DNA of 64,000 bases from Octopus vulgaris (lineage: Eukaryota): contig OX597814.1 in assembly GCA_951406725.2 (NCBI GenBank), positions 67,828,001 through 67,892,000 of the forward strand. The letters run 5' to 3'. Positions 35,960 to 47,094 of the stretch are shown one piece after another (positions within the stretch are counted from its first letter, which is position 1; every line of letters starts with the position of its first letter). Position numbers and translations under genes: made by a program. Under the pieces are notes generated by a model. It searched no databases, was not told the DNA's origin, and worked only from the letters and a program-made list of their open reading frames with translations.

Positions 35960-35968
35960 TTAGAAGAT

Positions 35969-37453
35969 GTGAAAAGAGCGAAGGAATTGTTAAGGAAGGA
36001 TGGCAATGGTATCTTCCTCAATACTCCACAAGAGGTGATTGAAAGCACCAAAAAGCAAACAATAATTTACAAAGTTTTCGACAGAAAACTAAAAAGAATA
36101 ACAAATGCCACACCCCAACAGTTGGAGATAGCTCTAAAGCCCATTTGGGCCCAAAAGAGCTACGTAACCAAGGGGAAGCGTTTTGGAACCGTGGAGGTTC
36201 GCTTCCCAACAGAGGAGCTTGCAAGGGCGAACGCCATTTCGCCCTTGCAAACTGAGAATTTGTTACTAGTTCCGACCCACCTCGGGCGAAGAGTAACAAA
36301 AATAAAAATCGACCTCGCACCCCCTGAGCTAGATATGTCATGGCTGGTGGCAGCTGTCCTCTATGATATAGAGGACACTACCACCATTCTATATGTCAGG
36401 AGAGTGAGGGCGAAAAACTGGTTGGGGATGGGAGTGCTGCTTCTTGCGCAAATTCAGCAAGAGAATATAAGTAAAGTCCCTGATTTCGTAAGTTTGCCGG
36501 ACGGCACCAGGCTAAACGTTGCTGTGGAGGGGCGAAAGCCAAAATGTTTCCTCTGCAGCAGCGAAAGCCACTTAAAGAGGGAATGTCCCATTCACAAAAA
36601 GAGGATGGAGGCTTTCAGCAAGAGGCAGCAGCAGCAACAACAACAACAACAACACAAGCAACAACAACAGAAACAACAAAAACAACAAGAAACACCAAAG
36701 GCTGCCACACCACCAACACCATCACCAACACCAGCACCAAGACGAACAACACCACCTCCAACAACAACAACCACCACCAAACCAACACCGACACCAGTAC
36801 CTCGAAGGTCGACAGCAGCGACATCAACAGTAACAGGAGCAGCGGCACCACCGATACCGGCGGAACCAAAAACTTTTCGTCCTGCTACTGAAGCAGACCC
36901 CTCAACCATTCCTTTGCCGGATGAAGAGATCTCGGATTGTGCGAGCTCTGATTCCAACAAAGGAGAATGGAACATAGTGCCTCCAAAAAAGAAAAGGAGG
37001 AAAAAACAAAAAGATTTACAGGGGAAGCACGAACAAATAGTACTTCCCAACATCAACAACATCAACAACAACACACACTCACAACAACAAACAACAACAA
37101 CAACAACACTTTCGACACCACTACTGCCACTACCACAGACACAAACAAACACAGACACAATTACAGACACGATTACAGCAGTGAATACAAGAAACCAGGA
37201 ACTGGTTGAGTATTTGAAAAACAAAACAAGCACAAACATTACAGATTTCATAATACCTACACACAACACACCACCAGCACACATTCTCACAATAAAAATA
37301 AACAAAACAGTTTACAACGAAATAAAACAAATATTCCCTAACGATGTGGGATCGTTAGGGAAAAGTTTCTCGCAGAAACTTTACAAAAATATTATTGAAG
37401 CACCCGTGCAAAAGCACAAGGGAGCCACCCCCACCACCAACAACAGTAAGTAG
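35969..37453 (+). CDS. ORF1 gag-like protein (CX2CX4HX4C knuckle, Q/T/P-rich linker), N-truncated
   Basis: CFLCSSESHLKREC; basic KKKRRKK motif. Confidence 0.88.
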   Translation: MKRAKELLRKDGNGIFLNTPQEVIESTKKQTIIYKVFDRKLKRITNATPQQLEIALKPIWAQKSYVTKGKRFGTVEVRFPTEELARANAISPLQTENLLLVPTHLGRRVTKIKIDLAPPELDMSWLVAAVLYDIEDTTTILYVRRVRAKNWLGMGVLLLAQIQQENISKVPDFVSLPDGTRLNVAVEGRKPKCFLCSSESHLKRECPIHKKRMEAFSKRQQQQQQQQQHKQQQQKQQKQQETPKAATPPTPSPTPAPRRTTPPPTTTTTTKPTPTPVPRRSTAATSTVTGAAAPPIPAEPKTFRPATEADPSTIPLPDEEISDCASSDSNKGEWNIVPPKKKRRKKQKDLQGKHEQIVLPNINNINNNTHSQQQTTTTTTLSTPLLPLPQTQTNTDTITDTITAVNTRNQELVEYLKNKTSTNITDFIIPTHNTPPAHILTIKINKTVYNEIKQIFPNDVGSLGKSFSQKLYKNIIEAPVQKHKGATPTTNNSK

Positions 37454-37493
37454 AGCCTTTTTTCTCCTTTTTTTTCCCCCTAACTTTTGAAAC

Positions 37494-43321: not shown

Positions 43322-46300
43322 ATGGCAAATCTTAGAATCGGTTGCTTGAATGTGAGAGGCGTCGGGTCACCTTGGAAACAGGGTCACCTGTTAAACGACC
43401 TGAGGTTTCATGATGTGGATGTAGCAGCCATCAGTGAAACCAGGCTCTCCGACCCGCAAGAACTCGCAGCCCTTTTCGGCGGATACGAGATATTTCTATC
43501 TCCGTGTCGGCCGGGAGCGGGCGGTGGTGGTACTGCGGTGTTGTTTCGGAAGGGCCTGGACTTGAAAATAAGGACAGTCTTCTTGGATCCGGAAGGTAAG
43601 TTGGTGGTCCTCGACGTGGACGGTAGTGACGGCGGTGCTTTCAGACTGGTGGCTGCCTACGCTCCGACAGGAGCAGGGCAGTCGGATTATTTCAAACGTC
43701 TGGAAATTTTCCTGGGAACGTCACGCACTCTAGTACTAGTTGGGGATTGGAACGCTGTCTTAGACGAACGTTTCGATCGGGTGGGCAGGGGAGCGTCTGA
43801 AAGGAAAGGGGGAGGGTGCAAGAGCCTCGCCAACCTACTCGGCCGCTTTCAGCTGTCCGACAGGTTTCGACTAGACAACCCGAATGTGCCAATGTGGACT
43901 TGGACCAATCGCATCGGGTCGTCTAGATCGTACTTAGATAGAGTGTTTTGTAGGCCAGCGGATAAGGACAGCGTAGGGTGTCCACAATTCCACCTAGTCG
44001 AATATACGGACCACAAATTAGTGATCTGTACGGTCGACTTAGATAGGCTACATAGACAGGGACCCGGTTACTGGAAGCTGAACGCGTCGTTAACGACGTG
44101 CAAAGCTTACAGAGACCGGATTAGTTTACTAGTTAAGCGGGCGCTCACGGGGGCAATCATCAACAACAACTGGTGGTTTGCCCTCAAGAGAGCAATTAGA
44201 GTAGAGTCAATTAGGTATAGTAAGACTCTAGCTATTGAACGTAGGAAGAGAGAGCGGGATTTAGTTAAGAAACTAGACGAGGCTCTTGAGACTGGCATCG
44301 CGACCGACGTGTTGGCGGCAAGGTTGGCCCTCGACCAACACTTCGACGCCAAACACGTTGGATACTTTGTCAGAGCTAAGGCACGTTCGCTAAGCGGGGA
44401 GGGGACTAGAGCCGCTCGGTGGGCCCGCGTGGCGGAGGCGAAACGAGGCAACAAAGCAACCATTCGGTCTTTGGTGGACCAGAACGGGCGCGAGGTTACC
44501 AAACCGAAGCAGATGTGTACGGTGCTTCAGCGGCACTTTGCTCAACTGTTTGGGACGAACGATGGAACGGACAACGGTGCAGACTTCGGTGTGTACCTGG
44601 ACGGCCTACTGCAACTCTCGGACAGCGAGGCAGAGTGCTGCGAAGGACCGACATCTGCCTGGGAAGTGGGAGAAGCGATGAAGAGTTGCACGAGAGGTAG
44701 ATCACCGGGTTTGGATGGTCTGCCCTACGAGCTTTACTTTTCAATGCCAGACTTGTTTGCGGGCCTGTTGGCAAACGTCTACTGCAACTGGCAGCAAAAC
44801 GGGAGAATTCCTGCTTTTGTCTGTCGAGGGGTGGTGGCTTTGCTGAAGAAGGACCCAAACAAGGGGGACGTTATAGGGAATTTCCGGCCCATCACTCTGC
44901 TCAATGCAGAGTTGAAGATTTTGGCCAAGGTGCTAGCCAAGAGATTGGCGCTTGTCGTGGACAAGCTGGTCGGCGAGACGCAGACATGCGCCGTGCCGAC
45001 CAGGTCGATACACGACAACCTCCATCTCATGCGCTACATCATAGAGAGGGTGGGTAACGACGCTGGCGCGTGTGGGGCTTTGATCAACTTGGATCAGAGT
45101 AAAGCCTTCGATAGGGTCGACCATCGGTACCTGACAGCTGTCCTCAAGGCAGCCGGCTTCGGTCCATTTTCCGCGGGTGGATAGCTGCTTTATACAGCAA
45201 CATCTGCTCGGTGATACGGGTGAACGGTCACCTTTAGGAACCGTTCGGCATCTCACGTTCGGTCCGCCAAGGATGCCCTCTCTACTCCCTCTTGTACATT
45301 TTGACTCTCGAGCCTTTACTGCGCAAGTTGGAGGCTTTGAGGGGTATCCCGCGCGATCTAGGAGGCGGAAACAGCGTGTCTGCCTATGCCGACGACGTCA
45401 CCGTGGTGGTGTCGAGCCACAGGCACATTGGCCTGATTTGCGAGACACTAAACGAGTACGAAGCGGTGACAGGGGCAAAGATTAATGCGGAAAAGTCTGT
45501 GGGCTTGCAACTGGGCACCTGGAGAGGCAAGCCCATGCCGTCCAACAGCGTCGTAGGGCGCTGGACAGACGGACCCATTAAACTGCTCGGGGTCTGGTTC
45601 GGTCCGGACCTCCAGGTGAATAAGAAATGGGAAGAGGTGACGAGCAGGGTGGCACGTCTCACCCAGAAATGGGCCGAGAGGAAGCTGTCCCTGAAAGGTC
45701 GAGCGGAGGTGGCGAATGCGTACATCGCATCCGTCATCTATTACCGCTTGACCGTCGTCTCTTGTCCCGACCGCTGGTTGGCCAAGCTGGTACGTCTGCT
45801 CTTCGACTTTTTGTGGAAGGGTCAGGTGCCACTGGTCAGGCGATCCATCTGCTGTCAACGACCGCTGAACGGAGGCCTTGGAATGCCGTGGTTGCTGTTG
45901 CGCAGACATGCGCTCAGGCTGCGGCATCTCAAGCGCTTCCTAGACGGTGAACAGGTGTGGTCGTCTTTTGTCAGACGCGATTTTCCGCAGCTCGTCTCTT
46001 TGACGGAGCTGCAGACCTGGATCAAACGTAGACCGAGAAAGGGCGCTTGGCACCTCGAGTGCCGTCAAGCTCTCTCCGCACTCCGCCAGGCGGGCAATGC
46101 GATCGGTTACAGCTCCACTCTAGCGTTCTATAGAGGGTTAGTGGAGGAAAAATGCGACGACGTTCTCGGGGAAACTCTAGGCGTTGAAGATGACGAACTG
46201 AGCGGTCTGTTCGGAAGGACTTTTCGCCGGGGCCGATGTATAATTTCCAGAGGCCGCTCGCCTGGCAGTGCTACCGAGGGGCTCTGCCTGTTCGAGATAA

Positions 46301-46751
46301 ACTTTACCGGCACGGAATTGCCGTCAGCCGGGCCTGCCCGAGGTGTTGCCAGGACGACGAAACCGTTCTGCACGCACTCGTCCAGTGCCCGACTATTGCT
46401 GAAATATGGGTTTATGTCGAACAGCTACTGTCACGTGTAGGACGGATCCGACTATCAGCCGAATCCATAGTGAAGATTACCCCGCCGACCTCCTTTAACA
46501 AAGAGGGCGAGGCCGTTTTCTTGTGCCTAGTGGCTGTGGCGAAAGAAGTTCTGTGGTGCACTCGTTTGAAAGGGCTAAAGTCAGACACTTTCCTCTTTGG
46601 TCAAGGCCTCATCAACTTTTTCAAGTTTCACTTGAAAAGGAAGATGAGGTTAGAGAGGAAAGTGCTGTCCGATAGCAAGTTTTATGAAAGGTGGGTGAAT
46701 TGTGCGAGACTGGCCAGTATAAATGGACCAGTTCTCAGGTTTCGCCTGTGA
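43322..46751 (+). pseudogene. ORF2 of copy 2 (APE+RT), frameshifts near 45170 and 46225
   Basis: ORFs 43322-45184, 45292-46440 and 46236-46751 are near-identical to copy 1 ORF2. Confidence 0.92.
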
Positions 46752-47094
46752 TTTGAAAAAGGTAATGTAAAAGGAGAAAAAAGGGACTCTCTACACCCCT
46801 TTTTTGACCAGGCTCCCGTTGGCTTTTGTAGGGTTTTTTCCACCAGGAACCTTTCGAAACGTCTCCCCCTTTTAGGAGTTTTTCATTGTTTTATAATTAT
46901 TGTTATACAGTTTTTTTACTCGATGTTTTTCAAAAACGGACAAAACCCTTTGTAACCTTTCGTCCTGTCTTGTCCCTTCATGTTTCAAATCATGCGTGTT
47001 AGCCCTTGTGGCCAATAAAAAAGATTTTATTATTATTATTATTATTATTATTATTATTATTATTATTATTATTATTATTATTATTATTATTATT

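Follow-up and report, generated by a model that had tools for sequence, protein, structure and literature searches.

A likely (ATT)n preference in two separately inserted Tx1-clade LINEs of an octopus repeat cluster

Among Tx1-clade retrotransposons, microsatellite targets have been described for the teleost Kibi and Koshi families, which insert into (TC)n and (TTC)n, and for a crocodilian group, which inserts into (TTCC)n/(TTTC)n (PMC4494074, PMC3812793). We analyzed a 64-kb stretch of Octopus vulgaris DNA (contig OX597814.1, positions 67,828,001 to 67,892,000; the whole stretch is hereafter the window) that is dense in retroelements and in which two long interspersed nuclear elements (LINEs), copies A and B, lie head to tail among runs of ATT. 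As far as the Kibi/Koshi and crocodilian elements are described in those sources, the octopus family resembles them in its Tx1-clade placement, its apurinic/apyrimidinic-type (APE) endonuclease, its two open reading frames (ORFs), and the presence of a microsatellite on both flanks. It differs in that their targets are pyrimidine-rich, whereas its own flanks are all of the ATT type and its reverse transcriptase (RT) falls on a separate branch; none of the references in our tree could be recognized by name as Kibi or Koshi.

The same class of repeat is used by Dong, an element of the R4 clade that inserts into TAA microsatellites in Bombyx, Anopheles, and Biomphalaria and represents the only TAA target listed in the available part of PMC3812793. 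Dong-like elements also lie in the same arrays of the window. However, the Dong-like ORFs found here have a C-terminal PD..D-type endonuclease motif and TAA on the sense strand, whereas the octopus Tx1 family has two ORFs, an N-terminal APE domain, and ATT on the sense strand. Both Dong-R4 and L1-Tx1 elements are abundant in Octopus vulgaris, whose repeat library includes 80 L1-Tx1 families, 13 of them recently active with 421 insertions (PMC13282606). The family of the window is probably among those 80 if the host is Octopus vulgaris or a close relative; the available part of PMC13282606 holds no target analysis for L1-Tx1 families.

Our preferred reading, to which we assign a probability of about 0.68, is that copies A and B are two separately inserted Tx1-clade LINEs, likely of an octopod family, whose endonuclease likely prefers (ATT)n, each insertion of which would leave ATT on both sides. 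ATT would then likely be a new target within the microsatellite-specific Tx1 group of the Kibi/Koshi type. The literature search, which included the accessible parts of PMC4640811, PMC3747384, PMC4758252, and PMC4824008, found no ATT-targeting Tx1 element, although Repbase, Dfam, or figure 3 and the supplement of PMC4494074 may list one.

Two head-to-tail copies and their ATT flanks

The cluster formed by copies A and B is organized as follows.

35644-35960, + strand: 317-bp compound (ATT)n/(ATC)n array preceding copy A, with a terminal (ATT)19
35961-41210, + strand: copy A, Tx1-clade LINE, 5'-truncated within ORF1, its first base directly after (ATT)19
35963-37453, + strand: copy A ORF1 remnant, domains predicted to bind RNA (ZCCHC3-like), a single CX2CX4HX4C knuckle, Q/T/P tail of low complexity
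37494-40927, + strand: copy A ORF2, APE endonuclease, RT, C-terminal zinc region, single frameshift near 37979
40928-41210, + strand: copy A 3' untranslated region (UTR), with a small predicted hairpin, AATAAA, and a short run of A at its end
41211-41228, + strand: spacer between copies A and B, exactly (ATT)6, 18 bp
41229-47028, + strand: copy B, Tx1-clade LINE, apparently full length, 5' UTR to 41449
41450-43318, + strand: copy B ORF1, stop at 42170-42172, 1-base gap versus copy A near 43256
43322-46751, + strand: copy B ORF2, with the APE catalytic motifs, frameshifted near 45166 and near 46223
47029-47094, + strand: repeat downstream of copy B, (ATT)22

Both copies are near-intact two-ORF LINEs on the + strand and are 92% identical across ~5.3 kb. 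A sequence-only reading of this DNA had described two such copies with about six ATT units between them, and this was borne out to the unit. The spacer, which is about one duplication long and comparable to the roughly 10-19 bp spacers in the arrays of a sister lineage described below, may be a leftover of the target or of a target-site duplication.

The only Pfam domains matched by ORF2 are Exo_endo_phos, RVT_1, and zf-RVT, with neither an RNase H nor a restriction-like endonuclease, and the catalytic motifs (N, E, Y, D/N, D, and H) can be aligned with those of the Tx1 and L1 rows. The endonuclease domain is open over the first 160 codons of both copies and complete in B. ORF1 proteins of Tx1 elements carry RNA-binding domains and a CCHC knuckle, unlike the coiled-coil type of vertebrate L1. 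In the copy A remnant, the knuckle lies at residues 195-208. The Pfam search of ORF1 gave no Transposase_22 match and a zf-CCHC match below the cut-off, and the nearest protein-atlas neighbors, which are to be taken as a lead only, were the CCHC and ZCCHC3-RBD clusters (0.91-0.94). No tRNA was found by ARAGORN, and an Rfam scan of 18-48 kb returned only sub-threshold matches, on simple repeats.

Two older relatives of the family, missed by the sequence-only reading, lie upstream in the window.

~18961-20277, + strand: copy C, older relative with a nucleotide identity of ~70%, 5' end lost up to a point in the RT, preceded by a degenerate ATT/ATC run and followed by (ATT)5
~21695-25016 (5' boundary approximate), + strand: copy D, older relative, internally deleted, remnants of both ORFs, preceded by a degenerate ATT/GTT run and followed by (ATT)23

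Each of the four Tx1 copies in the window has an ATT-type run at either end, always with ATT on the sense strand. Two of the four (A and C) are 5'-truncated within coding sequence, and their upstream repeats are therefore not element-encoded. The same conclusion had been drawn earlier from the observation that both a truncated and a full-length 5' end abut the repeat; it stands for A, whereas the run upstream of B may be the 3' tail of A and thus does not count as independent evidence. This leaves the run upstream of A as the informative one. Six in-frame ATT units directly upstream occur at 1.9% of the + strand window positions outside the four elements and at <0.01% of 24,550 positions outside the cluster, while runs of five or six relaxed units, the background for the degenerate C and D flanks, occur at 3.4-3.8% of positions and hardly ever outside the cluster. 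With B left out, the product of the flank chances of A, C, and D is ~3e-5, a figure that carries the caveat that the C/D junctions and the relaxed ATT/ATC/GTT alphabet were chosen post hoc. Runs of at least four ATT units are found 32 times on the + strand and once on the - strand, many of them in compound ATT/ATC arrays, a skew that would fit a cluster grown through repeated oriented insertion into ATT arrays.

By analogy with the known target-primed reverse transcription of Tx1 and L1 elements, the endonuclease would nick the (AAT)n strand, and the freed 3' end would pair with (AUU)n at the end of a transcript read through AAUAAA into the downstream repeat. The RT would then copy the RNA, often stopping early, which would yield 5' truncations such as those of A and C. 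The target-site duplication would be concealed in the repeat and would regenerate the target on both flanks; with ATT units left on both sides of each insertion, a later copy could land beside an earlier one.

Separate insertions, an ORF1 mosaic, and clade placement

The divergence between A and B is 1.3-3.4% in ORF2 segments and 4.1% in the 3' UTR versus 24.8% of bases in the first half of ORF1 (A 35961-36500 versus B 41793-42330). In that half, dS is 1.48, dN is 0.16, and dN/dS is 0.11, and on these rates the difference is one of long functional divergence, not of decay. Divergence drops abruptly from 25% to <9% just ahead of the ORF1 knuckle. Judged by this comparison, the two copies carry different ORF1 subfamilies, A being a mosaic of another ORF1 subfamily and the same ORF2; an exchange of the 5' module between subfamilies before insertion would have joined the diverged first half of ORF1 in A to a near-identical ORF2. 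Given the 24.8% divergence in ORF1 against 1.3-3.4% in ORF2, A and B were inserted separately. An origin of the pair by local duplication was rejected on the divergence in half of ORF1 and on the differing 5' ends.

The lesions of A and B had been said to complement each other. This holds in ORF2 but not in ORF1, owing to the divergence of its first half. The further claim that an intact consensus could be rebuilt from A and B is wrong for ORF1: since the subfamilies differ, the lost 5' part of A is not recoverable from B, and the consensus would be a chimera of two subfamilies. The description of the family as young applies in a relative sense, that of the low ORF2 divergence given above.

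The family was present in 20 of 24 listed sequencing runs, from four organisms, and none of the runs holding it was an RNA run. In the contigs of four public runs, 30 of 30 bins of the element unit were covered in every run, with a summed depth far greater towards the 3' part; depth does not equal copy number here, and the skew fits a multicopy family with 5' truncation. The ORF1 stop of copy B is missing from most of these contigs, so that intact copies of the family probably exist.

The best named relative is a protein of Argonauta hians, with 71% identity over the RT region, followed by the sister group at 48-54%. Together with the abundance of Dong-R4 and L1-Tx1 elements in Octopus vulgaris (PMC13282606), this makes an octopod host likely. 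A piece of ORF2 scored 149 bits against human L1 ORF2p, versus 296-330 bits against fish Tx1-type proteins, which include YTX2-named proteins, BAC82605, and BAC82609. We take the latter two to be members of the 2004 Kibi/Koshi series, which a literature check did not confirm. In an RT tree of 41 rows (23 of 64 rows were dropped for speed), the family grouped with the YTX2-named proteins and BAC82605/BAC82609 with 99/94 support, vertebrate L1 falling outside, and a forced grouping with vertebrate L1 was rejected (p-AU 0.031). This group also contains two long-branch unlabelled rows. A quick tree of 67 rows agrees, with weaker support (87-92 SH-aLRT). It should be noted that the Tx1 references were labelled by their database names and the L1 references by the Pfam matches of their ORF1. 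The RT phylogeny thus supports membership of the family in the Tx1 clade (L1 group), as had been proposed, apart from vertebrate L1. Within the clade, the octopod and sister rows form an RT branch of their own (100/100) outside the fish/reptile Tx1 group (100/100), at 36-40% identity, which points to Tx1 but neither to Kibi nor to Koshi; the sister relation of this branch to the fish Tx1 group has 38/31 support.

A sister lineage, controls, and alternative readings

In a scan of genome contigs, the sister Tx1 lineage was found at 38 loci (L081-L118) and at L120, all in one genome record (G001). It is the nearest outside branch, with an RT about 51% identical. This record is titled an Arenicella metagenome-assembled genome, yet its contigs are animal-like, which flags contamination, and it may hold a self-propagating array system. 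The lineage shares with the octopus family a homologous ORF1 with the same knuckle context at its end, the habit of stacking head to tail, and a similar 3' hairpin before AATAAA, but differs in its long arrays, its short non-repeat spacers, and the lack of ATT at 38 of 38 ends. Its arrays consist of mostly intact elements with a unit of ~6.4-6.8 kb, and their spacers are array-specific and, judged by eye, roughly 10-19 bp long. A single array end was seen, and there the sequence of the spacer runs on into the flanking DNA, as a repeated target-site duplication would. In the 7 stretches of G001 that were read, ATT runs were close to Dong-like pieces or lay in unrelated DNA, and none was at a Tx1 end.

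The sequence-only reading had described a head-to-tail tandem. The tandem is real, but as the sister lineage stacks without ATT, this arrangement is an older habit and weak evidence for such targeting. For the same reason, any real preference for ATT must have originated on the octopod branch; the sister 3' ends led us to reject ATT targeting as a trait of the whole lineage. In the endonuclease, the stretch corresponding to the target-probing hairpin loop is not the same in the octopus family and in the sister rows, and in L1/Tx1L chimeras this loop alters the nicking pattern without transferring specificity by itself (PMC1950540).

Further afield, a metagenome scan (10 of 64 parts) found distant relatives only, with 25-52% identity in the best segment. 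A scan of a viral collection found no relatives, and the 3'-end pattern had one match in viral contigs, without ATT or element context. Eukaryotic Tx1-like LINEs also occur in prokaryote records (L119, L121-L125, L127, L128, L129, and L130, the last in an Anaerolineae record), which suggests more host contamination, and several of these records have two Tx1-like elements in series. At L142-L143 (G001:C16), an 8.16-kb unit is repeated three times in tandem; in it, a Dong-like piece and an ATT run accompany a fragment of an LTR-type RT.

Other retroelements of the window served as controls.

1-347, 8481-18471, 30489-31721, 32001-33831, - strand: nine Dong/R4-like pieces of several subfamilies, several stacked head to tail
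~27600-29762: CR1-like LINE, 5'-truncated, (ATT)5 tail, no ATT run upstream (negative control)

All nine Dong/R4-like pieces, delimited by eye, have (TAA)n at the 5' end and form the positive control; the one at 14199-18471 appears to be full length. Such flanks are the reported behavior of the TAA-specific element (PMC3812793). The pieces share the - strand. Both the Dong/R4 and the CR1-like labels are putative and were assigned from sequence motifs. The ATT tails of the CR1-like LINE and of the short interspersed nuclear elements (SINEs) described below imply that a 3' ATT run alone means little, and such a run was rejected as stand-alone evidence, the CR1-like LINE having an (ATT)5 tail.

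Several observations weigh against an ATT preference. The data come from a single locus with four copies, which was selected for its repeat; the flanks of C and D are degenerate; and a target-site duplication is unreadable within a repeat. ATT runs are very common in the window (32 runs of at least 4 units, 1401 bp) and also end the CR1-like LINE and 3 of 5 SINE copies. In the sister lineage, ATT follows 0 of 38 distinct 3' ends, despite the head-to-tail stacking. The small 3' hairpin before AATAAA pairs in 79% of cells, which 1 of 500 shuffles reached, and shows one double change. Its covariation score is weak, however, being equalled in 36 of 500 shuffles and surpassed by a slid control. Whole-tail folding gave z-scores of 0.05 to 1.0, and a strongly folded 3' tail was therefore rejected.

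The alternative that survives best is a loose, L1-like taste for flexible T/A steps in a region where ATT runs are abundant and renewed by Dong elements and repeat tails. The 32 runs in 64 kb and the ATT tails of unrelated elements speak for it, as does the finding that the L1 endonuclease reads the DNA structure of the T-A junction more than its sequence (PMC1950540). Yet such flanks occur at only 2-4% of window positions and are nevertheless found on 4 of 4 copies in one orientation, and the CR1-like control has no 5' ATT run. We therefore consider this alternative unlikely. Self-targeting, by which an element would insert beside earlier copies or into its own duplication regardless of sequence, (ATT)n being a self-made tail and the upstream runs being earlier tails or slippage, would account for the long arrays and array-specific short spacers of the sister lineage, with no microsatellite, and would allow (ATT)6 upstream of B to be read as the tail of A. 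It is quite improbable all the same, as none of A, C, and D is preceded by a Tx1 3' end, and the run upstream of A is a 317-bp compound array preceded by unrelated sequence. That the tandem arose by local duplication or through an assembly error that set two haplotypes in series, with an incidental repeat association, is scarcely credible: the A-B junction lacks confirmation in other samples and several frameshifts lie within homopolymer runs, like sequencing errors, but A and B differ by 25% in half of an ORF1 under purifying selection and at their 5' ends, and C and D independently show the same flanks.

As to the preferred reading, the earlier proposal of an ATT-specific APE element stands as a likely preference, seen at both ends of 4 of 4 copies at this one locus, rather than as strict specificity. 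In PMC4494074, a target-specific Tx1 family is one with a single sequence type in >20% of flanks across its genomic copies.

The SINE tail, neighboring features, and implications

Five copies of a SINE family lie in the window, one of them in the ATT array that follows copy B.

47095-47310, + strand: SINE in the ATT array following copy B; the 3' tail of its family resembles the 3' end of the sister Tx1
20293-20436, 20466-20676, 25455-25662, + strand: further copies of the SINE family
35412-35548, - strand: further copy of the SINE family

ATT-type runs lie on both sides of 3 of the 5 copies, which share the orientation of the Tx1 copies, on the 5' side only of one, and on neither side of the - strand copy. 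In 66 comparisons, with 300 shuffles for each, the last 25-40 bases of the SINE matched the sister Tx1 at its 3' terminus: at p <= 0.007, one copy matches 5 of 5 sister tails, a second 4 of 5, and a third 2 of 5, while a fourth reaches p 0.03 once and the fifth has no match. Against the tail of the octopus Tx1 family itself, two copies have their best matches on the same small hairpin (p 0.24-0.67), and a significant match to the family of the window was thus rejected. Judged from these comparisons, the SINE tail is likely Tx1-derived. The SINE was found in none of four genomes scanned, the sister record included.

A comparable pairing is known from crocodilians, in which Tx1-Mar and SINEU share a target and have tandem insertions sandwiching one target-site duplication (PMC4494074). 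The target there is a Mariner element, whereas in the octopus the SINE tail matches the sister Tx1 significantly and the window family only at the small hairpin. No Tx1 partner for the octopus SINE was found in the literature search, including the available parts of PMC8967140, PMC9115989, PMC2684134, and PMC8869645. A second SINE-like element (34083-34421), with a tRNA-like head by eye, lies between two ATT arrays; its tail matched none of the 11 LINE 3' ends tested.

A few other features of the window can be mentioned. The segments 4319-4912 and 6454-7047 form a 594-bp direct repeat of 99.8% identity, which may mark either end of a young element or have arisen by local duplication. An inverted repeat of ~690 bp and 91% identity (57309-57953 and 58898-59585) encloses an ORF at 57707-58900 on the - strand, a 397-codon open frame with no Pfam match. 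At 35610-35638, directly before the ATT array upstream of copy A, and at 8455-8483, a short palindrome is followed by CTAG, which we presume to resemble a Helitron 3' end.

A broader reading is that the octopod Tx1 has acquired strict (ATT)n specificity from a non-ATT, array-forming ancestor, shares the repeat with opposite-strand Dong elements of unrelated endonuclease, and also drives an abundant octopus SINE with a Tx1-type tail into that repeat; we hold this to be possible but doubtful. If strict specificity and the drive of the SINE were true, ATT microsatellites would be the organizing landing pad on which much of the octopus repeat load settles, and ATT sites would grow into polarized nested clusters like the present one. 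The SINE link, if true, would provide a candidate partner for a class of SINEs to which 11.6% of the Octopus vulgaris genome belongs (PMC13282606).

As the mechanism is already known and target changes are frequent in Tx1, the finding would be of moderate surprise to a specialist. If the ATT preference is true, ATT joins the list of Tx1 targets, and two unrelated endonucleases, one APE and one restriction-like, would have converged on one microsatellite in one genome. The close non-ATT sister lineage would then help to locate the residues that switch specificity.

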